From Escherichia coli (GTDB lineage: Bacteria; Pseudomonadota; Gammaproteobacteria; Enterobacterales; Enterobacteriaceae), in assembly GCF_030013595.1 (NCBI RefSeq), contig NZ_CP122768.1: a DNA stretch of 64,000 nt; one strand, written 5' to 3'. The position numbers and the translations under genes were made by a program. Below the pieces are notes generated by a model. It had not been told where the DNA came from and searched no databases. It worked only from the letters and a program-made list of their open reading frames with translations. Each line of letters begins with the position of its first letter. Position 1 is the first letter of the stretch. This document shows, piece after piece, positions 1,883 to 60,027 of this stretch.

Positions 1883-2860
1883 TTATGCCCGGTCAACGCT
1901 AAAGGCGATGACTTCAGCCAGTGTCTCCGCGCCCAGCGCCAACATCACCAGACGATCAACACCTAATGCCACGCCGGAACAGTCAGGCATACCGACTTTC
2001 AAGGCTTCAATCAGATTCTGGTCAATGGGGTGCTGCGGCAAACCGCGCGCCGCGCGCTTACGGTTATCTTGTTCAAAGCGTTGTTGCTGCTCACGGGCAT
2101 CCGTCAATTCATGGAAACCATTCGCCAGCTCAATACCTTTATAATAAACCTCAAAGCGTTCAGCGACCCGATGATCTTCGGTACTGATTTGCGCCAGTGA
2201 TGCCTGGCTGGCTGGAAAGTGGTACACAAAGGTCGGTTTTTCTTTGCCAATATTTGGCTCTACGCCAAAGGTAAACAGCAATTGTAGAAGCGTGTCGCGG
2301 TCTTCTTCAGTATCGGCAACGTTGCTCAAATCCAGTTTCGCTGCCACTTCCCGCAGTTGCGTTTTGTCGGCAGAGAGTGGGTCAATTTCCAGATAACGCA
2401 AGAAAGCTTGTTGATAAGAAAGGCTTTCTGCTGCCGGGCAGTCCAGCACTTGTTGTAAGAGATCGTCCACCTCGTTCATCAACCGGTACATATCATAGTG
2501 CGGTCGATACCACTCAAGCATAGTGAACTCAGGGTTGTGATAACGCCCCATCTCTTCATTACGGAAGCTGCGGCACAGCTGGAATACCGGCCCACAACCG
2601 GCAACCAGCAGGCGTTTCATATGGTATTCCGGGCTGGTCATTAACCAGAGATTCATCCCCTGCGAATGCCCAGGGCCAACGAAACGTGTCTCAAACGGGA
2701 CCAAATGAATATCGGTTACCGTCGCCTGGCTCATACAAGGCGTCTCCACCTCCAGCACTCCACGATCGGCAAAGAAACGACGGATCTCCGCCATAATCGC
2801 CGCGCGTTTTAATAAGTTAGGAATGGATGCGCTCGGCTGCCAGGATGCCGTTTCGCTCAT
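1883..2860 (-). CDS. epmA: EF-P beta-lysine ligase EpmA (PoxA/YjeA, class II LysRS paralogue)
   Basis: Translation recognised as EpmA; start set at MSETASW (325 aa), ORF track over-extends to 2905. Confidence 0.9.
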
Positions 2861-22561: not shown

Positions 22562-22637
22562 GCCCGGATAGCTCAGTCGGTAGAGCAGGGGATTGAAAAT
22601 CCCCGTGTCCTTGGTTCGATTCCGAGTCCGGGCACCA
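22562..22637 (+). tRNA. pheU: tRNA-Phe (anticodon GAA)
   Basis: 76-nt sequence GCCCGGATAGCTCAGTCGGTAGAGCAGGGGATTGAAAATCCCC...GGGCACCA with GAA anticodon loop and encoded CCA; whether this is the pheU or the identical pheV copy is inferred from the flanking yjdC/cadC context. Confidence 0.97.
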
Positions 22638-22834: not shown

Positions 22835-24097
22835 ATGGCACTGACTGACGCAAAAATCCGGGCTGCAAAGCCCACTGACAAGGCTTATAAACTCACTGAC
22901 GGGGCCGGCATGTTCCTGCTGGTTCATCCTAATGGTTCCCGTTACTGGCGTCTCCGTTATCGTATTCTGGGTAAGGAGAAGACTCTGGCACTTGGTGTGT
23001 ATCCGGAAGTTTCTCTCTCCGAAGCTCGTACAAAACGGGATGAGGCCCGAAAACTGATTTCAGAGGGGATTGACCCTTGCGAACAGAAAAGAGTTAAAAA
23101 AGTTGTCCCTGATTTACAGCTCTCTTTTGAACATATTGCACGACGCTGGCATGCCAGTAATAAACAATGGGCACAATCACACAGCGATAAAGTACTCAAA
23201 AGCCTCGAGACACACGTTTTCCCCTTTATCGGCAACCGGGATATCACAACACTCAATACCCCGGACCTGCTTATCCCTGTTCGTGCTGCAGAAGCAAAAC
23301 AAATTTATGAAATCGCCAGTCGTCTGCAGCAAAGAATATCTGCTGTAATGCGTTATGCCGTACAGTCTGGCATCATCAGATATAACCCGGCTCTGGATAT
23401 GGCTGGTGCATTGACCACGGTAAAACGCCAGCATCGCCCTGCTCTGGATCTTTCACGCCTGCCTGAACTTCTGTCGCGTATTGACGGTTATAAAGGCCAG
23501 CCTGTCACCCGACTGGCAGTTATGCTGAATTTACTGGTTTTTATTCGTTCCAGTGAACTCAGATATGCCCGCTGGTCTGAAATTGATATTGACAATGCCA
23601 TGTGGACTATTCCAGCCGAACGCGAACCTCTGCCAGGCGTAAAATTTTCATACCGGGGCTCCAAGATGCGAACACCACATCTTGTGCCACTCAGCCAACA
23701 GGCTGTAGCCATACTGGCAGAACTTCAGACATGGGCAGGTGAAAATGGTCTGATCTTTACGGGAGCACATGACCCACGTAAACCAATCAGTGAAAACACC
23801 GTAAATAAAGCCCTGAGGGTTATGGGGTATGACACAACCCAGGATGTCTGTGGTCATGGATTCCGGGCGATGGCATGTAGTGCATTAATAGAATCAGGTT
23901 TGTGGTCCCGCGATGCTGTGGAACGCCAGATGAGCCATCAGGAGCGTAATGGTGTACGTGCTGCGTATATCCATAAAGCCGAACATCTGGAAGAACGTCG
24001 ACTTATGCTACAGTGGTGGGCAGATTTTCTGGATGCGAACAGAGAACAATGTATCAGCCCGTTTGAATATGCAAAGATTAACAATCCATTAAAATAG
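22835..24097 (+). CDS. P4-type tyrosine integrase (island integrase)
   Basis: 420 aa; N-terminal MALTDAKIRAAKPTDKAYKLTDGAGMFLLVHPNGSRYWRLRYR arm-binding domain and C-terminal HGFRAMACSAL catalytic region typical of CP4/P4 integrases; sits directly 3' of a tRNA gene. Confidence 0.9.
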   Translation: MALTDAKIRAAKPTDKAYKLTDGAGMFLLVHPNGSRYWRLRYRILGKEKTLALGVYPEVSLSEARTKRDEARKLISEGIDPCEQKRVKKVVPDLQLSFEHIARRWHASNKQWAQSHSDKVLKSLETHVFPFIGNRDITTLNTPDLLIPVRAAEAKQIYEIASRLQQRISAVMRYAVQSGIIRYNPALDMAGALTTVKRQHRPALDLSRLPELLSRIDGYKGQPVTRLAVMLNLLVFIRSSELRYARWSEIDIDNAMWTIPAEREPLPGVKFSYRGSKMRTPHLVPLSQQAVAILAELQTWAGENGLIFTGAHDPRKPISENTVNKALRVMGYDTTQDVCGHGFRAMACSALIESGLWSRDAVERQMSHQERNGVRAAYIHKAEHLEERRLMLQWWADFLDANREQCISPFEYAKINNPLK

Positions 24098-34662: not shown

Positions 34663-35177
34663 GTTCTCCCCGTATTCTGGCCTGTGTGATGCCAGTGTAA
34701 ATTCATGTCAAAAAGTGTCAGCGAGAAAATTTACACCTGAAAAAGTCTGTCATGAAACAGTTTTATGACAAGACATCAAAAAAATGTCAAAAACGTGATC
34801 TTTCTTCAGCTTTTCAGAATATTGAGTACCAGGAAGTCAATATCAATTCTGGGACACATATGCATTTACCATTAAAACCGGGCACAACAAGCTGTTCAGT
34901 CTCAATCCATACCCCGTGTTTTATCAATATCAGAATAAGAATATCTGCGGATAAATAAAAAAGGAATGTCGAGGGAGCTTACCGCAGAGGGCTCTCCACC
35001 TCACAAACCATTTACAAAAATGATACCGGCATATCTTTGGTCCCTGTCACAACCAGACATTGACAATCCAATATAACCCCAAATATATTTCGGGTAAGAA
35101 GTCTGGGATTTATACAGATATACTGTCTGTTATTACTATTTAATTATATAATTGTATTGCATACATAAGAGGCACTA

Positions 35178-51038: not shown

Positions 51039-52070
51039 TCATGTACTCTGACGTAATTCTATCTGGTAGTTGAATTGCACGATACGCGACTCTTCTGATT
51101 CATCATGATTATTATTCAATAGTCCAATCAGTAACTTACCTGTCTCTATCCCCATTTTTTTGTAGTCAATACGGATGGATGTCAAAGTTGGGTGTGTTTG
51201 ATCGCAATTGTCTGAACCGTCAAGACAAGCTACAGCGATATTTCCAGGGATTTTTAACAAACGCCGCTGGCACTCAAACATTATACCCAGCGCAATCTCT
51301 TCGTGGCTGCAAATCACAGCATCCAGCTCTGGTTGTCGCAGTAATATCTCGTTTAATGCGTAACGCCCCAATTGCAGACTTGCGGCATCCGGCATGGTGA
51401 TAACAAGATCAGTGTTCTGGTAATGGCTCAGCATTGCTTTATGCCAGCCGTTCAGTTGCTGACGTTGCAGGCGGTTGTCCATATGCGCACCGATAAATCC
51501 GATATTCTTATAACCCTGCTCCAGCAGATGTTCGGTCAGTTTATGTGATGCTTCAAAAAATGCTGTTTCGATGGTAATTTGAGCCGGACTGAAAGGGGAA
51601 CCGATAACGTTAATGGTAGGTATATTTGTTTTCTCGAGTATCTGGTGAGTTTTATCAGCCAACTGAGAACCAAAAATAACTAACGCCGCCGGGTTGCCTT
51701 GAAGAAGCGTCATCAGAATTTCAGCTTCTTTGAGCTGATTATACTCATGACACCCAAGCAGTAGCTGGAATTCATTTTTATTAAGCACCTGCTGTAATGA
51801 CTGCATAAAGCGGGAGCTGGCTTTATCTGTCAGGGAAGGAACCAGTACGGCGACTGTATGACTGTGACCAGATGCAAGGGCGCCAGCAGTTCTGTTGGGA
51901 ATATAACCCAACTCTTCTACGGCCTGTTCTATCTTTTCCCTCAGCTTGTCAGAAACCTGTTCCGGTGTTCTCAGCGCGCGGGAAACGGTCATAGTTCCGA
52001 CACCTGCAAAGTTAGCGACCTCCTGCAGCGTCACCCGTCCGGTACCACGGCGCTTACGTGTTTTTTCCAT
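51039..52070 (-). CDS. LacI-family transcriptional regulator
   Basis: N-terminal HTH VTLQEVANFAGVGTMTVSRAL and periplasmic-binding-protein-like effector domain; divergent from the PTS genes. Confidence 0.85.
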   Translation of the reverse strand: MEKTRKRRGTGRVTLQEVANFAGVGTMTVSRALRTPEQVSDKLREKIEQAVEELGYIPNRTAGALASGHSHTVAVLVPSLTDKASSRFMQSLQQVLNKNEFQLLLGCHEYNQLKEAEILMTLLQGNPAALVIFGSQLADKTHQILEKTNIPTINVIGSPFSPAQITIETAFFEASHKLTEHLLEQGYKNIGFIGAHMDNRLQRQQLNGWHKAMLSHYQNTDLVITMPDAASLQLGRYALNEILLRQPELDAVICSHEEIALGIMFECQRRLLKIPGNIAVACLDGSDNCDQTHPTLTSIRIDYKKMGIETGKLLIGLLNNNHDESEESRIVQFNYQIELRQST

Positions 52071-52340
52071 TTCGACTCCATGGATAATTACAACCAGCTG
52101 TTTTCATTACTTTTATTTCACCATTACTCTTTCCAGTTTTTGCCCACGGTAGCAAATATCCTGTTGCATTGTATATGCAGGAACCGAATATAGCCAAAGC
52201 ATGGCGGCAGAGAAATGATAGCGCTATCACAAAGATTGGTAGCGTTATCAGATAGCGCTATCAAATGCGACAATCATCACATTAATTAATGCGTAAAATA
52301 TCTACTCTCCTGTTAATTATCATCGGGAGTTATCAGTAGC

Positions 52341-52784
52341 ATGTTAAAAAATCTATTAAATACAGAGGTCGTTCAGGTCGTGGAACAGGTCAAAGACTGG
52401 CGGGAAGCCGTGGCGATTTCATGCCGACCGTTGATTGAAAACGGCTCTATCGAACCGCGTTATGTTGATGCGATCTATCACTCGCACGACACTATCGGTC
52501 CGTACTATGTGGTTGGCCCTGGTATTGCGATGCCTCATGCGCGCCCGGAAGAGGGGGCTAACAAGCTGTCATTAGCACTGACCCTGATCCCTTCAGGTGT
52601 GAATTTTGATGCCGATGAAAACGATCCAGTGAAATTACTGATTGTGCTGGCTGCAACCGACAGTACCAGCCACATTGAAGCGATTTCTCAACTCGCCAAG
52701 TTATTCGATAACGAAAAAGACATACAGGCCATTTTGACGGCCAAAACGACGCAGGACATTTTGTCTGTTATTGCGCGCTATTAA
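52341..52784 (+). CDS. PTS EIIA component (PTS_EIIA_2 type)
   Basis: 147 aa, phosphorylatable His in GIAMPHARP. Confidence 0.8.
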   Translation: MLKNLLNTEVVQVVEQVKDWREAVAISCRPLIENGSIEPRYVDAIYHSHDTIGPYYVVGPGIAMPHARPEEGANKLSLALTLIPSGVNFDADENDPVKLLIVLAATDSTSHIEAISQLAKLFDNEKDIQAILTAKTTQDILSVIARY

Positions 52785-52799
52785 TCCAGAGGAACATTT

Positions 52800-53087
52800 A
52801 TGAAAATTACAGTGGTTTGCGGTAACGGCTTAGGCACCAGCCTGATGATGGAAATGAGCATTAAAAGCATTTTGAAGGATTTGTCCGTCAGCGCTGATGT
52901 TGATCACGTCGACCTGGGCTCCGCGAAAGGGACGCCGAGTGATATCTATGTCGGCACCAAAGACATTGCCGAGCAGTTAGCCGCGCAGTCTGTCGCAGGC
53001 AAAATCGTCGCACTGGAAAATATGATTGATAAGAAAGCCATGAGAGAACGTTTGTCCGTGGTATTAACCGAATTAGGCGCACTGTAA
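52800..53087 (+). CDS. PTS EIIB component (ascorbate/SgaB-like)
   Basis: 95 aa, active-site Cys in VVCGNGLGTS. Confidence 0.8.
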   Translation: MKITVVCGNGLGTSLMMEMSIKSILKDLSVSADVDHVDLGSAKGTPSDIYVGTKDIAEQLAAQSVAGKIVALENMIDKKAMRERLSVVLTELGAL

Positions 53088-53099
53088 GCTGGGGGCGAT

Positions 53100-54356
53100 A
53101 TGGATTTCTTTCGTTTTTTGATGAGCGATGTACTTTCCGAACCCGCAGTGCTGGTCGGTTTAATCGCCCTGATTGGCCTGATTGCACAGAAAAAACCGGT
53201 AACCGAATGCATTAAAGGTACCGTCAAGACCATTATGGGGTTTGTGATTTTAGGCGCAGGGGCGGGTTTAGTTGTGTCGTCACTGGGTGACTTCGCAAAC
53301 ATTTTCCAGCATGCCTTTGGTATTCAGGGTGTAGTGCCGAACAATGAAGCCATTGTTTCCGTAGCGCAGAAAAGCTTCGGGAAAGAAATGGCGATGATTA
53401 TGTTCTTTGCGATGGTTATCAACATTATGATTGCCCGTTTCACACCGTGGAAATTTATCTTCCTGACCGGTCATCACACGTTGTTTATGTCGATGATGGT
53501 AGCGGTAATTCTGGCAACAGCAGGCATGACCGGCATTACGCTTATAGCCGTTGGCTCTTTGGTTGTTGGCGTGGCAATGGTCTTTTTCCCGGCTATTGCG
53601 CATCCGTACATGAAGAAAGTGACCGGTTCTGATGACGTTGCCATCGGCCACTTCTCAACATTATCTTATGTATTGGCCGGTTTCATCGGCAGCAAGTTTG
53701 GTAATAAAGAGCACTCGACTGAAGACATGAATGTGCCGAAAAGTCTGCTGTTCTTGCGCGACACGCCGGTTGCTATCTCTTTTACCATGAGCATAATTTT
53801 CCTGGTGACGTGCCTGTTTGCGGGTGCAGATGCGGTGAAAGAGCTTAGCGGTGGTAAAAACTGGTTCATGTTCTCTATCATGCAATCCATTACCTTCGCA
53901 GCTGGCGTGTACATCATTCTGCAGGGTGTGCGCATGGTGATTGCGGAGATTGTCCCGGCATTCAAAGGTATTTCAGACAAGCTGGTTCCGAATGCCAGAC
54001 CTGCTCTCGATTGCCCGGTCGTCTTCCCTTACGCACCTAACGCTGTACTGGTTGGTTTCCTGAGTAGCTTTGCTGCAGGTTTAATCGGTATGTTCACGTT
54101 GTATCTGCTGAACATGATCGTGATTATTCCTGGTGTGGTGCCGCACTTCTTCGTAGGTGCAGCTGCAGGGGTATTCGGTAATGCAACGGGTGGACGTCGT
54201 GGTGCGATTTTGGGTGCCTTCGCTCAGGGCTTGCTTATTACCTTCCTGCCAGTATTCTTATTGCCGGTGCTGGGTGATATTGGTTTTGCTAACACCACCT
54301 TCAGTGATGCTGACTTTGGCGCACTGGGTATTTTGTTAGGGATTATCGTTCGCTAA
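53100..54356 (+). CDS. PTS EIIC permease (ascorbate/UlaA-SgaT family)
   Basis: 418 aa polytopic membrane protein directly after EIIB. Confidence 0.8.
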   Translation: MDFFRFLMSDVLSEPAVLVGLIALIGLIAQKKPVTECIKGTVKTIMGFVILGAGAGLVVSSLGDFANIFQHAFGIQGVVPNNEAIVSVAQKSFGKEMAMIMFFAMVINIMIARFTPWKFIFLTGHHTLFMSMMVAVILATAGMTGITLIAVGSLVVGVAMVFFPAIAHPYMKKVTGSDDVAIGHFSTLSYVLAGFIGSKFGNKEHSTEDMNVPKSLLFLRDTPVAISFTMSIIFLVTCLFAGADAVKELSGGKNWFMFSIMQSITFAAGVYIILQGVRMVIAEIVPAFKGISDKLVPNARPALDCPVVFPYAPNAVLVGFLSSFAAGLIGMFTLYLLNMIVIIPGVVPHFFVGAAAGVFGNATGGRRGAILGAFAQGLLITFLPVFLLPVLGDIGFANTTFSDADFGALGILLGIIVR

Positions 54357-54571
54357 TATTTTGATGACATTAATATCCTCCAGGATTTCAGGAACGTGGA
54401 GGATATTAATTCCTCTTATTTTCTCCATTTTTCTTTCTTCCAGTCAGGACTGCATCCGATTAATCGTAAGCGCTCCGAGAAGTACGTAGCGTAAGGATTA
54501 TTTTACAGCTGAGAAGTTTCAGTGCAGCAGTTCATGCACACGGTTCGACGGCTAGTCATTGATCTTCATAA

Positions 54572-54856
54572 TTACCTCGCGTAAAAAACGGGGTAAGGCC
54601 GCTCATCCAGCGTCATCTCCACAGGTAATAATTCAACGCCAATGCCAGAAGAGTTCGTTACCGGAAGACGCCGTGATATACGCCCTTTGATCAGCGAGAG
54701 CCTGAGCCATTTGAACAGAAGATTATCATTGATATCATGCTCCCGGGCAATACGGGCAACAGAACCCCTTGGTTGTAAAGCCAGTTTAACCATTTGAAGT
54801 TTAAACTCATTTGAAAATGACCTGCGGGGTTCAACTGATAATGTTTTTTGTTCCAT
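54572..54856 (-). mobile_element. IS3-family transposase OrfA-like fragment
   Basis: 94-aa ORF with HTH transposase-8 pattern (FSNEFKLQMVKLALQPRGSVARIAREHDINDNLLFKWLR) but no adjacent OrfB or inverted repeats identified. Confidence 0.5.
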
Positions 54857-55277
54857 AACAGGTGTCCACTAGTTGAAAAGGTGGGTACCTATGTTACCAA
54901 TACTGGCTTAATGGCTACATACAGCAGTCGGTTTACGCATACACTTTTATAGTGCACTCCGGCCTCATGAATATAACGGTGGATTACCGCCGAACGAATC
55001 GGAAAATAGATACTGGAAAAAAACTGAAATTGTGACCAGTTTTTGTTGACCACTACAAATAAATAAAAGAGTTGCAGTGCTTGCTCGGTAAGAAAACAAT
55101 GGAGGTTAAGCTCCTCAAAGAAGCTGTGGAGTACACCACTCTACAGTAGTTGCGCAAATTTGGAGTGGACGATAATGTGATCGTCTATAAGGGCAACGCT
55201 ATCATAGTCTTGTCCTGGCGGGTAAAAAAACGCGCTTACCTTAACGATAAGCGCGCCGCTGTTCAGGCCTTGAGTGG

Positions 55278-56291
55278 TTATTCAATTCCTGTGGTGACTG
55301 TAAAAGTGCGCGTTTGCTGCGGTGCAACCTGAATCAGCGTGCCATTACGTTGCGCGGCAAGATACCCCTCAGGCCGACAGGTTGCAGGTAATGCAAAGGC
55401 GGCTACCTGTTGCTCTCCGTTATAAAGGATCCAGCGTGTCACATAATTTAGTTCAGCACTGTAGAAACGAGTAACAAACGTAGTGCCATCGGGAGAGATC
55501 ATGCGAAACTCTGGCTGATCTGTATAAGCGTCCAGTTTGTCTGCAAAGAAGACAATTTCTGGATCATAAAATTCCGGTTGACTCAGCGTCGACAGAGAGG
55601 CTTCTCCCTGCATAATCCGTTGATTAAACGCCAGCCACTGAGCGGTGGGATTAACATGCGAAGGCACTGATTCACGCAATCTTAATATTTCGTCCGGGAT
55701 ATTCTGGCTGAATGTAGCATTTGGTATATATGCATAATTCATGTGGCACATATATTGTAGTGGCATATCTACAGAAGCCAGATTGGTTACGGCCATCTTA
55801 ATATCGAACAGTGTAGAGGATTTGTGAAGGACCACTGTTGGCTGAGCCAGATAATGATGACCGAAACCCATTACATACTCGTAACGCCCGTTAAGGCGTA
55901 ACATATCTCCGTCTAATTCCAGCCATGCTTCATCCATCGCGGCACAGGCCATTTCACCGTGTAGCAGATGAGTATCTTCCACAGATGGGCAGCCATTAGC
56001 CAGCAAACCTGAATGAAAAGCAAAACAGCCATAGGTCTCTATCACCTCTGTCGCCGGTTTAGGCTGGCGAAACATATTGCACATGGTGAGGCCGTGTCCA
56101 TCAAATTGCGCATCCCAAATCATCTGCCCCATCCAGGGAAGAATAATCAAATGTCCACGACTGTTTGCAATTTTAAGCCCCTCGACACCGCTGTCATATC
56201 GAAAAGACGTGACAGTAAAATCACTATTTTCCAGCAAGATACGAGGTTTCTCGCCAAAAAGCGCCCGCCACAAATTAATACGCGTACTCAT
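55278..56291 (-). CDS. deoX: DeoX-like protein of unknown function (third gene of deoKPX-type module)
   Basis: 337-aa ORF downstream of the permease gene; assignment by operon context and recollection of the deoQKPX organisation; fold not verified. Confidence 0.45.
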   Translation of the reverse strand: MSTRINLWRALFGEKPRILLENSDFTVTSFRYDSGVEGLKIANSRGHLIILPWMGQMIWDAQFDGHGLTMCNMFRQPKPATEVIETYGCFAFHSGLLANGCPSVEDTHLLHGEMACAAMDEAWLELDGDMLRLNGRYEYVMGFGHHYLAQPTVVLHKSSTLFDIKMAVTNLASVDMPLQYMCHMNYAYIPNATFSQNIPDEILRLRESVPSHVNPTAQWLAFNQRIMQGEASLSTLSQPEFYDPEIVFFADKLDAYTDQPEFRMISPDGTTFVTRFYSAELNYVTRWILYNGEQQVAAFALPATCRPEGYLAAQRNGTLIQVAPQQTRTFTVTTGIE

Positions 56292-56302
56292 AACGATTCT
56301 CC

Positions 56303-57619
56303 TCAGGACGCTGTGACTTCAGCCAGTGCGGTACGTACTTTGCTTTCACGCCAGAAGTAGACTCCGACATAGACAAAGCAGAGCATAGAAACCAGGAATG
56401 AAAGCTGTAGTGAGTGGAACATATCTGCAATATATCCCTGAATTGCCGGAACCACCGCGGCACCGACAATAGCCATAACAATGACTGCTCCTGCCATTTC
56501 TGTATGTTCGTTATCAACTGTATCCAGTGTTCCTGCATAGATCGTCGCCCAGCAAGGGCCAAACAAAACACTTACCAGGACGGCGACATAGACCGCGCTG
56601 AAACTTGGAGCCAGTGCAACATATGCCAGGAACAGCGCCCCTATAACGGAATAGAGAATCAATACTTTTTCCGGATTAAAACGCGTCATAAGGATATTGG
56701 CTATAAACTTGCCAATAAAGAAGCAGGCAAAGCTATAGACCATGAAGTTTGAAGCATCACGTTCGTTGATATCGCCCAACTCCAGCGCCAGACGGATGGT
56801 AAATGACCATACTGCGACCTGCATACCCACATAAAGGAACTGCGCCACAATACCGCGACGAAAGCGCGGATTTCTAGCCAGATAGCGCAGCGTATCCATT
56901 GCTGACGGGCGTTTATGGTGACTTGTCTGTGCCACTTTACAGGTTGGGAAGCGGGTTAAAAGGAACAACACCATGACCACAACCAGAATCATAATCATAT
57001 ACTTATACGGTTCAAGGGTGTTCTCTAACATCAGCACCTTAAAGTTGTGAATTTGCTCGGCGTTCATTCCTGACATCTGCTTTTCAAGGCTTTCCCCCTC
57101 GGAGAAAACCAGATATTTGCCCAATAAAATACCAGACGCAGCACCAATCGGATAAAAGGTCTGGCTGATATTGAGCCGCAATGTGGCATAGGCTTTTGGA
57201 CCGATCATTGAACTGTATGTGTTCGCTGCAGTTTCAAGGAAACTCAGGCCAATCGCAATCGCAAAAATAGCTGCAAGGAACATAGTGTAGGTTGCCATAT
57301 GCGAGGCAGGGAAAAAAAGTGTACAACCACCAATATACAGCGTCAGGCCAATTAAAATTGCCACCTTATAACTGGTCTTTTTAATCACAAGGGATGCTGG
57401 TATTGCAATTAAAAAATAACCTCCATAAAATGCGCTCTGCACCAATGCTGAAGCAAAGTTACTTAGCGAAAATACACTTTTGAATTGAGTGATTAATATG
57501 TCATTTAATGCAGCTGCGCATCCCCATAGCGGGAATAAACACGATAACAAAATAAACTGGAACAAGGGAGTCTTATTCAGATACCCATCAGGCATCTGAA
57601 TGATGTTTTTATCGTTCAT
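56303..57619 (-). CDS. deoP: MFS sugar permease (FucP-like), putative deoxyribose permease
   Basis: 438 aa, 12-TM MFS profile; between kinase and deoX-like genes. Confidence 0.6.
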   Translation of the reverse strand: MNDKNIIQMPDGYLNKTPLFQFILLSCLFPLWGCAAALNDILITQFKSVFSLSNFASALVQSAFYGGYFLIAIPASLVIKKTSYKVAILIGLTLYIGGCTLFFPASHMATYTMFLAAIFAIAIGLSFLETAANTYSSMIGPKAYATLRLNISQTFYPIGAASGILLGKYLVFSEGESLEKQMSGMNAEQIHNFKVLMLENTLEPYKYMIMILVVVMVLFLLTRFPTCKVAQTSHHKRPSAMDTLRYLARNPRFRRGIVAQFLYVGMQVAVWSFTIRLALELGDINERDASNFMVYSFACFFIGKFIANILMTRFNPEKVLILYSVIGALFLAYVALAPSFSAVYVAVLVSVLFGPCWATIYAGTLDTVDNEHTEMAGAVIVMAIVGAAVVPAIQGYIADMFHSLQLSFLVSMLCFVYVGVYFWRESKVRTALAEVTAS

Positions 57620-57646
57620 AGTGCTACCTTTAACTGTGCAGGATGA

Positions 57647-58540
57647 TTATTCGTTTAAGGTTAAAAATTCATTAAATTGTTCAATACTCGGATAAGATGA
57701 TTGCGTACCTTTCCCTGTGACGCTGAAAGCGGCAAAGAGAGCGGCTTTTTTCAAAGCGGCTTCAACATCACCGCTTTGAACATAATAATGGGAAAAGCAA
57801 CCAATAAATGCGTCACCAGCGCCACTAGTATCAACAGCATTTACTTTGAATGCAGGAACATGGACTTCCTGATCGCGGGTCATCCATAATGCGCCTTTTT
57901 CGCTCATGGTAACAATAATATTGTTCAGCCCTTTATCAACTAACGAACGTGCGGCCAAACGAATATGATCATAAGTATCAACCGACATACCGGTTAATAT
58001 TTCCAGTTCTGTTTCATTCGGGATAAAGAAATCACATTTGCAGGCATAAGACATATCTAACTCACGCAATGCCGGAGCCGGATTTAATAACACTTCAATA
58101 CCATTTTTCTTACCAAACTCAATCGCGTGGTAAACTGTTTCCAGTTGAACTTCCAGTTGTAAAACGATCAATTTGCATTTTTTCAGATCTTCTGCAGCTC
58201 GATCGATATCTTCCGGGGAAAGAAATTTATTCGCTCCCTTAATTATTAATATACTATTGCTCGAGTTGGCATTAACAAAGATCGGTGCAACACCACTGCT
58301 GGTACAGGGGACTTTCTCAACATAAGTGGTATTAATTCCCCATGATTCGAGATTACGAATAGTATTATCCGCAAAAATATCATCACCTACTTTAGTCAGC
58401 ATCAGGACTTTTGAATTCAATTTAGCCGCCGCCACCGCTTGATTAGCACCTTTCCCACCACATCCGATTTTGAAGGCAGGTGCTTCCAGAGTTTCTCCTT
58501 CTTTAGGCATCTGATTAGTGTAAGTAATGAGATCCACCAT
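57647..58540 (-). CDS. deoK: ribokinase-family sugar kinase, putative deoxyribokinase; 5' end cut by IS1
   Basis: Ribokinase motifs GGKGANQAVAAA and DTSGAGDAF; upstream in-frame codons ...VIGSN run straight into the IS1 terminal repeat, so the native start codon and promoter are missing. Confidence 0.65.
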   Translation of the reverse strand: MVDLITYTNQMPKEGETLEAPAFKIGCGGKGANQAVAAAKLNSKVLMLTKVGDDIFADNTIRNLESWGINTTYVEKVPCTSSGVAPIFVNANSSNSILIIKGANKFLSPEDIDRAAEDLKKCKLIVLQLEVQLETVYHAIEFGKKNGIEVLLNPAPALRELDMSYACKCDFFIPNETELEILTGMSVDTYDHIRLAARSLVDKGLNNIIVTMSEKGALWMTRDQEVHVPAFKVNAVDTSGAGDAFIGCFSHYYVQSGDVEAALKKAALFAAFSVTGKGTQSSYPSIEQFNEFLTLNE

Positions 58541-58572
58541 ATTGGAACCAATAACTGGGTAATGACTCCAAC

Positions 58573-59076
58573 TTACTGATAGTGTTTTATGTTCAGATAA
58601 TGCCCGATGACCTTGTCATGCAGCTCCACCGATTTTGAGAACGACAGTGACTTCCGTCCCAGCCTTGCCAGATGTTGTCTCAGATTCAGGTTATGCCGCT
58701 CAATGCGCTGAGTATAACGCTTGCTGATAACGTGCAGCTTTCCCTTCAGGCGTGATTCATACAGCGGCCAGCCATCCGTCATCCATACCACGACCTCAAA
58801 GGCCGACAGCAGGCTCAGAAGACGCTCCAGTGTGGCCAGAGTGCGTTCACCGAAGACGTGCGCCACAACCGTCCTCCGCATCCTGTCATACGCGTAAAAC
58901 AGCCAGCGCTGACGTGATTTAGCACCGACGTAGCCCCACTGTTCGTCCATTTCAGCGCAGACAATCACATCACTGCCCGGTTGTATGCGCGAGGTTACCG
59001 ACTGCGGCCTGAGTTTTTTAAGTGGCGGAAAATCGTGTTGAGGCCAACGCCAATAATGCGTGCACTGGCGCGACAT
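58573..59076 (-). CDS. insB: IS1 InsB (expressed as InsAB' by frameshifting)
   Basis: 167-aa ORF overlapping insA in the -1 frame. Confidence 0.85.
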
Positions 59077-59270
59077 CCGACGCCATTCATGGCCATATCA
59101 ATGATTTTCTGGTGCGTACCGGGCTGAGAGGCGGCGTAAGTGAACTGTAGTTGCCATGTTTTACGGCAGTGAGAGCAGAGATAGCGCTGATGTCCGGCGG
59201 TGCTTTTGCCGTTACGCACCACCCCGTCAGTAGCTGAACAGGAGGGACAGCTGATAGAAACAGAAGCCAC
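58995..59270 (-). CDS. insA: IS1 InsA
   Basis: 91-aa [23 protein letters not shown]... Confidence 0.9.
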
Positions 59271-59325
59271 TGGAGCACCTCAAAAACACCATCATACACT
59301 AAATCAGTAAGTTGGCAGCATCACC

Positions 59326-60027
59326 GACAATGCAGATGGTTCAACCATGCTGGATAAACGTTATGTCATCACTAACGGTAATCAGCTGGCGATTCAAAAT
59401 GATTTACTGGAGAGTTTATCAAAAGCGTTAAACCAACCGTGGCCACAACGAATGCAGGAGATGCTCCAGCAAATTTTGCCTCATCGTGGTGCGTTATTAA
59501 CTAATTTTTATCAGGCACATGATTATTTACTGCATGGCGATGATAAATCATTGAACCGTGCCAGTGAATTATTAGGTGAGATTGTTCAATCATCCCCAGA
59601 ATTTACCTACGCGAGAGCAGAAAAAGCATTAGTTGATATCGTGCGCCATTCTCAACATCCTTTAGATGAAAAACAATTAGCAGCACTGAACACAGACATA
59701 GATAACATTGTTACACTACCGGAATTGAATAACCTGTCCATTATATATCAAATAAAAGCGGTCAGTGCTCTGGTAAAAGGTAAAACAGATGAGTCTTACC
59801 AGGCGATAAATACTGGCATTGATCTTGAAATGTCCTGGCTAAATTATGTGTTGCTTGGCAAGGTTTATGAAATGAAGGGGATGAACCGGGAAGCAGCTGA
59901 TGCATATCTCACCGCCTTTAATTTACGCCCAGGGGCAAACACCCTTTACTGGATTGAAAATGGTATATTCCAGACTTCTGTTCCTTATGTTGTACCTTAT
60001 CTCGACAAATTTCTCGCTTCAGAATAA
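59326..60027 (+). pseudogene. cadC: cadC 3' fragment (C-terminal periplasmic sensor domain only), truncated by IS1
   Basis: Reading frame continues from the IS1 boundary and ends ...NTLYWIENGIFQTSVPYVVPYLDKFLASE, the CadC C-terminus; the N-terminal DNA-binding and TM regions are absent. Confidence 0.85.

Follow-up and report, generated by a model that had tools for sequence, protein, structure and literature searches.

An orphan transposase-like reading frame between the vpe and deoK operons of Escherichia coli lies in an internally deleted IS66-family relic

A short reading frame with a transposase-type HTH stands alone between two operons of an Escherichia coli genomic island, raising the questions of which mobile element it came from and whether it still does anything at this site. 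The window analyzed here is a stretch of 64,000 nucleotides of contig NZ_CP122768.1 (assembly GCF_030013595.1). The island starts at a tRNA-Phe gene (22562..22637), followed by an integrase gene (22835..24097); the position of the tRNA gene downstream of dsbD and yjdC identifies the insertion site as pheU. The island cargo includes fec and an aryl-polyene-type cluster. A LacI regulator and the IIA, IIB, and IIC components of an ascorbate-type PTS occupy 51039..54356. Past a 921-bp spacer (54357..55277), the minus strand of 55278..58540 carries an aldose-1-epimerase-like gene, a FucP-like permease, and a ribokinase-like kinase.

In the literature, the PTS cluster is the vpe operon and the kinase cluster is the deoK operon with deoM, deoP, and deoK (PMC6455142); deoK on PAI(AL862) has been reviewed (PMC7545054). 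In the table describing the LAC PAI of LEE-negative STEC, the entry that stands between vpeC and deoM is an 'ORF38 transposase' (PMC6455142, supplementary file 17). That locus and the window have the same order of vpeR, vpeABC, transposase fragment, deoM, deoP, and deoK; however, the published ORF38 is a 73-aa version for which no IS family is given, whereas the window copy is a 94-aa allele. The ORF is also present in RefSeq (WP_000436084.1, WP_001327567.1, and WP_000239754.1). The locus is an ordinary IS scar that has already been annotated and published as ORF38, and its origin can be read from the features of the spacer, listed here from left to right:

54369..54410, plus strand: perfect 14-bp inverted repeat, ATTAATATCCTCCA N14 TGGAGGATATTAAT, located 13 bp past the vpeC stop and followed by a T-rich tail.
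54466..54489, minus strand: right terminal inverted repeat, ISSfl3-like (GTAAGCGCTCCGAGAAGTACGTAG), recognized from its GTAAGCG start and by BLAST to ISSfl3.
54498..54590, minus strand: dead 3' remnant of tnpC, the last ~31-34 codons, identified by translations and DNA matches.
54572..54856, minus strand: tnpA-derived ORF, in which codons 1-85 are tnpA, with the HTH at residues 11-55, and the last ~9 codons (ERPYPVFYAR) are foreign.
54601..54942, minus strand: IS682-like left end, comprising the left inverted repeat, a 62-bp leader, and tnpA codons 1-85, identified by DNA identity to IS682.
54919..54942, minus strand: left terminal inverted repeat (plus-strand letters ATACAGCAGTCGGTTTACGCATAC), identical to the IS682 IRL at 20/24 positions.
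54943..55057, no strand assigned: 115 bp of filler that separate the IS66 relic from the IS2-like one, with strain-to-strain homology breakpoints at both edges.
55058..55150, plus strand: 3' remnant of an IS3-family (IS2-group) orfA, identified by alignment of its peptide to IS2 InsC.
55229..55257, minus strand: intrinsic terminator of the deoK-deoP-deoM operon, a 12-bp stem followed by TTTTTT, which forms the right bound of the IS debris.

The ORF listing of the window gives a minus-strand frame at 54572..54856 that begins with ATG and encodes exactly 94 aa. Its product matches the Pfam domain HTH_Tnp_1 (PF01527) at residues 11-55 with an E-value of 1.3e-13 and 51 bits against a cutoff of 24; a match so far above chance means that the ORF is real and not a chance frame, and the initial annotation of a transposase-type HTH protein at this position holds. 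The same annotation had assigned the ORF to the IS3 family, as an isolated OrfA fragment without OrfB or terminal repeats. PF01527 does occur in IS3-family OrfA proteins. IS3-family elements carry orfA and then an overlapping orfB, which encodes the DDE/rve transposase, with a -1 frameshift between them; their inverted repeats have the form 5'-TG...CA-3', and their target duplication is 3-5 bp. Elements of the IS66 family carry tnpA-tnpB-tnpC, have inverted repeats starting with 5'-GTAAGCG, and generate an 8-bp target-site duplication.

Profile ranking places the 94-aa ORF with IS66. The top NCBIfam matches are IS66 TnpA models (NF038385, E = 2.5e-18; NF047595, E = 2.5e-16), which outscore the IS3 model by 13-14 orders of magnitude; the match to transpos_IS3 is weak (E = 8.9e-5, 21.9 bits, cutoff 160). 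As no more than 85 of ~141 codons are left, both IS66 scores lie under the cutoffs curated for the whole protein. Direct comparison to the 141-aa TnpA of IS682 reveals 80% identity over 90 aa, with specific homology stopping at about residue 85, and the last ~9 codons of the ORF are an out-of-frame reading of the tnpC remnant across a deletion junction. An apparent extension of TnpA homology to residue 110 by tblastn was rejected as read-through noise, since the DNA there matches the tnpC end of ISSfl3. A PDB sequence search with the 94-aa ORF returned nothing meaningful.

The case for an IS3 OrfA would draw on the PF01527 domain, on the sub-cutoff transpos_IS3 match, and on a true IS3-family remnant, the IS2-like orfA piece at 55058..55150, which lies ~200 bp from the ORF on the opposite strand. 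The DNA of this piece is 77% identical to IS2 and IS3-family copies, and a longer form of it is an annotated transposase pseudogene in strain L2_E1649 (locus L004, 2846..3079). The 94-aa ORF belongs to the same HTH_Tnp_1 class as the IS2 group but lacks orfB and TG...CA ends: downstream of it we found no orfB but a C-terminal remnant of an IS66 tnpC, and the ends of the relic are not of the IS3 type but of the IS66 GTAAGCG type. A tblastn comparison of IS2 OrfAB with the ORF gave 31% identity over 45 aa (E = 1e-3) and no specific similarity. Judged by profile and sequence matches, the 94-aa ORF is the N-terminal 85 codons of the IS66-family accessory protein TnpA with its N-terminal HTH. The assignment to IS3 is almost certainly wrong, given the much better IS66 profiles, the terminal repeats, and the close match of the surrounding DNA to IS682.

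This match covers 54601..54942, which is 89.5% identical over 342 bp to positions 2192..2533 of the 2533-bp IS682. It extends to the final base of the element, so the relic retains the left inverted repeat, at 54919..54942. In intact relatives, the corresponding genes are annotated as 'IS66-like element accessory protein TnpA', followed by tnpB and then tnpC, the 'IS66-like element IS682 family transposase'. The reference IS682 was delimited in NZ_CP032808.1 (1810..4342 of the fetched locus L002); its inverted repeats, GTAAGCGTCAACGGAGCACCGTAT and ATACGGCGGTCAGTTTACGCTTAC (the IRL), are of the GTAAGCG type, and this copy, which served as a control, is bordered on both sides by the 8-bp target duplication GAGAAAGA. 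The left terminus of the window relic, ...TTTACGCATAC at 54942, differs by 1 base from CGCTTAC (heptamer GTATGCG instead of GTAAGCG), and the relic and IS682 share the terminus type …TTTACGC(T/A)TAC.

The opposite end has a different closest relative. A direct reading from 54466 starts with GTAAGCG and gives the terminus GTAAGCGCTCC.... The segment 54465..54584 is 87.5% identical over 120 bp (BLAST) to the right end of ISSfl3, an IS66-family element of the Shigella flexneri virulence plasmid. Similarly, 54464..54584 is 90% identical over 121 bp to an IS66-family tnpC 3' remnant beside the pheV integrase of E. coli 08_3418. Both matches, which comprise the inverted repeat and the tnpC C-terminus, start 1-2 bases from the terminus at 54466. 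The right end of the relic has no significant similarity to the right end of IS682. Conversely, ISSfl3 tnpA matches the tnpA part of the window at 78% over 86 bp only, and the 224-aa ISSfl3 TnpA shares with the 94-aa ORF only the 42-residue HTH core, at 71% identity. The tnpC remnant reads FLREVIMKIND*PSNRVHELLH*NFSAVK* (asterisks mark stops), as compared to ...WLREVIVKLNDWPSNRVHELLPWNCSTVK* in a relative with an intact frame; both Trp codons are now stops, so that, unlike in ISSfl3, the ~34 tnpC codons left contain two premature in-frame stops.

In its minus-strand orientation, 54466..54942 is thus a ~477-bp internally deleted IS66-family relic, in which an IS682-like left piece and an ISSfl3-like right piece lie in the same orientation and are joined at about 54590-54601. 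The terminal repeats that had been reported missing are both there, and the relic has IS homology without being a complete element. Of the tnpA-tnpB-tnpC set, tnpB is gone and tnpC is a stub, which makes this a relic of the IS66 family and not a functional member of it. The description of the ORF as an orphan without a partner transposase is correct: tblastn with IS682 TnpB and TnpC detected no tnpB or tnpC adjacent to the relic or elsewhere in the 64-kb window, and blastn and tblastn with IS682, ISSfl3, ISEc23, ISEc43, and IS2 did not locate the missing halves in the window. Relative to IS682, the relic lacks TnpA residues ~86-141, tnpB, ~94% of tnpC, and the 8-bp target duplication; its flanks, GATTAATC and ACTTTTAT, do not repeat each other. 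An inverted-repeat search of 54300..55300 did not report the two termini as a pair because they are too dissimilar, agreeing in the first 7 bases only, one of which is mutated; they were recognized through homology instead.

The relic is probably a hybrid of two IS66 members. We infer that the two inserted adjoining or into each other and that an illegitimate deletion at about 54590-54601 afterwards joined the pieces, in this presumed order. The deletion would have taken the C-terminal 56 residues of TnpA, the whole of tnpB, and ~94% of tnpC. Two elements and a deletion would make the simplest account; alternatively, the parent could have been a single IS66 member that combined an IS682-like left end with an ISSfl3-like right end. 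We looked for an intact element uniting both ends in 5,426 E. coli genomes (megablast with the spacer and with a unit of 479 bp, 54464..54942), in 72,556 plasmids (blastn with the two halves separately), and, by exact matching of 31-mers, in the GTDB representative genomes, and found none; the single GTDB match was a MAG contig with a rearranged IS682-like sequence. After these searches, the best intact relatives are IS682 for the left half (89.5%) and ISSfl3 for the right half (87.5%).

What the ORF has become can be read from its sequence and from its variation among strains. A C-terminal motif that is nearly invariant in TnpA of IS682, ISEc23, and ISEc43, CKVEF(R/H)(H/Y)G(N/K)M.LENPSPELLTVLIRELTGRGR, is missing from the ORF, and the conserved WLRLWQ(N/R)E(G/R)R has turned into WLRLSLIKGR through a run of nonsynonymous substitutions. 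A dN/dS of 0.33 relative to IS682 blends the time spent as a working gene with the time spent as a relic and is uninformative on decay; we therefore replaced it by counts of polymorphism within the relic. Codons 1-85 of eight relic copies contain 12 nonsynonymous and 5 synonymous variants, a nonsynonymous share of 71% versus a neutral expectation of 76% (binomial p = 0.58), although eight copies at 1-3% divergence give this comparison little power. The start codon is gone in one lineage (ATG to ATA), another carries a 5-bp frameshift deletion inside the HTH, and +1 or -1 indels shift the tail of the ORF in further strains. Start loss and indels leave an annotated ORF of 94, 84, 79, or 78 aa, depending on the strain. 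The first ~80 codons, including the HTH, are open in most lineages sampled. A search of its own strand for a sigma-70-like promoter upstream gave none, and the ORF is presumably not expressed. Together, these patterns are those expected of a drifting pseudogene, and in a sample of this size and low divergence weak selection is possible.

Could the relic nevertheless be active in some form? Truncated transposase N-termini act as inhibitors or modulators in IS1, IS911, and Tn5. By analogy, the truncated TnpA might be a retained DNA-binding protein, either a trans-acting inhibitor or modulator of IS66-family elements or a co-opted regulator of vpe or deoK. Consistent with such a role, HTH residues 11-55 are intact in the window copy, most sampled strains keep the ORF open, RefSeq annotates it as protein WP_000436084.1, and the spacer occurs in about 940-1,330 of 5,426 complete E. 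coli genomes. Yet natural lineages tolerate start loss and frameshifts, the polymorphism is indistinguishable from neutral, the conserved C-terminal part is gone and a conserved motif scrambled, a promoter-like site is lacking upstream, and hitch-hiking with the flanking operons explains the wide distribution. We consider a functional protein very unlikely. Mobility of the DNA itself appears less likely still. The 477-bp unit, which has kept IS66-type termini on both sides and in proper inverted orientation, resembles a non-autonomous, MITE-like IS66 deletion derivative that full-length elements could mobilize in trans, and its tnpC'-tnpA' junction recurs in another context on pAA virulence plasmids (97% over 297 bp; E. 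coli FDAARGOS_401, locus L005, 4001..4409). However, both ends of the pAA copy are truncated, all complete copies examined adjoin vpeC, the 8-bp target duplication is absent, and the termini stem from different IS66 lineages. Complete 477-bp copies at unrelated loci with 8-bp direct repeats were not present among the loci examined, and mobilization of the unit is extremely unlikely. On these enteroaggregative pAA plasmids, the junction copy has an S6-peptidase pseudogene on one side and the aat genes for dispersin export on the other, and a further ISSfl3-like right end directly abuts it.

A third possible activity is suggested by similarity to the small RNA AfaR. The Rfam model RF02515 aligns over its full length to the plus strand at 54839..55043, with high posterior probability at model positions 1-107, but the score of 33 bits (E = 5e-4 to 1e-3) is far under the gathering score of 100. 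Nucleotides ~9-105 of AfaR, taken from the afaE/afaD spacer of an afa-8 strain (locus L016, 2759..3293), align with the terminal 94 bp of IS682 at 80% identity over 97 bp, as far as the tip of the IS, and with the relic of the window at 76.5% identity. For the sigma-E promoter region and the 3' half of afaR, the window contains no counterpart. An afaR orthologue was rejected for this reason, the homology being confined to the IS66-derived 5' ~100 nt. That the plus strand of 54839..55043 encodes an AfaR-like small RNA is exceedingly improbable, as shared ancestry from an IS682-like left end explains the similarity. Both the AfaR locus (RF02515; PMC3664800) and the relic hold the antisense strand of such an end, and by this alignment pattern the match is one between two independent relics of related IS66 left ends. 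The AfaR paper attributes the 3' end of afaR to IS2 (PMC3664800). We detected no IS2 similarity in afaR by blastn at E <= 0.01 and found the IS682 match instead; hence, the 5' ~100 nt of the published AfaR appear to derive from an IS682-like IS66 left end.

Taken together, the best explanation, to which we assign a probability of about 0.9, is that the ORF is a pseudogene fragment in a dead, internally deleted IS66-family relic. The observations behind it are the family assignment, both termini, the truncation, the decay, the neutral polymorphism, and the recurrent IS insertion at the site described below. Such a relic would be unable to transpose on its own, and nothing points to selection on it. 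It is very improbable that it is not inert, with the truncated HTH protein still binding the ends of IS66-family elements and damping IS682-like transposition or the IS left end driving or forming a plus-strand AfaR-like RNA, as a paralogous IS682-like left end appears to have been co-opted in the afa-8 cluster; if this were true, the relic would be a second IS66-end-derived regulator in the same island family.

The pseudogene fragment shares the spacer with other debris; by these alignments, the entire spacer is a mosaic to which at least three IS relics contribute. On its left, the IS66 relic is bounded by the 54369..54410 hairpin, which lies outside it and overlaps a terminator-like site on the plus strand (54398..54416). 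The hairpin is probably the terminator region of the vpe PTS operon; being AT-rich, it could be a weak terminator or a palindrome bound by a protein. Intact elements have entered the same region in other strains: strain B771 carries an intact IS2 at the equivalent of 55180-55184 with a 5-bp duplication (locus L009, 3717..5047), strain WP3-S18 has an intact ISEc23 at the equivalent of 55037-55045 (locus L010, 3582..6112), and in a Klebsiella plasmid an intact ISEc22 lies in or adjoining vpeC. The vpe-deoK spacer is a recurrent IS landing site.

Insertions are also found elsewhere in the island. In the reference strain 2015C-3163 (locus L006, 13338..17077), an IS3-family element and a complete ISEc43 adjoin a truncated ShlB/FhaC-type gene; both insertions are absent from the window (~34744..34750), and apart from them the two islands share 99.8-99.9% identity between pheU and deoK. 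In the window, an IS1 copy at ~58543..59331 (DDE_Tnp_IS1, E = 1e-74) truncates deoK at its 5' end, leaving 297 aa as compared to 306 aa in the reference. Across 58543..60027, IS1 replaces deoQ and the remainder of the island and abuts a truncated cadC, of which only the C-terminal domain is left; cadB and cadA come next. As a result, the deoK operon of this strain is without its regulator and native promoter, and cadC is disrupted, which may cause a lysine-decarboxylase-negative phenotype.

The fragment had also been proposed to mark a junction between modules, and comparison of strains supports this view. In strain L2_E1649, the deoK cluster occurs without the vpe PTS, and homology to the window starts at 55058. 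Conversely, two plasmids, K. pneumoniae pINF102.6 and E. coli pRHBSTW-00304_2 (IncY and IncFIB), carry vpeR-vpeABC and the relic, but not deoK, between IS26 copies; their homology to the window stops at 54941/54942, the IS terminus. The separate occurrence of the deoK and vpe modules, with breaks at these two positions, indicates that the fragment marks the seam between them, and the location of the vpe module and relic between IS26 copies argues that this island module was captured by plasmids and reached Klebsiella. The 921-bp spacer is 100% identical in many complete E. coli genomes, at least 80% of it is present in about 944/5,426, and the relic is carried by about 1,330 of the E. coli genomes.

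These results correct the annotation of the ORF, which belongs to an IS66 TnpA relic with its termini present and not to an IS3 OrfA. The only point of wider reach is that the 5' ~100 nt of AfaR apparently come from an IS682-like IS66 left end. The significance of the relic itself is historical, in that it marks a stretch between vpe and deoK where insertion sequences have repeatedly landed and modules have been joined. As a landing pad and seam, the vpe-deoK spacer of pheU/pheV islands helps to reconstruct how these islands were assembled and how vpe was transferred to plasmids.
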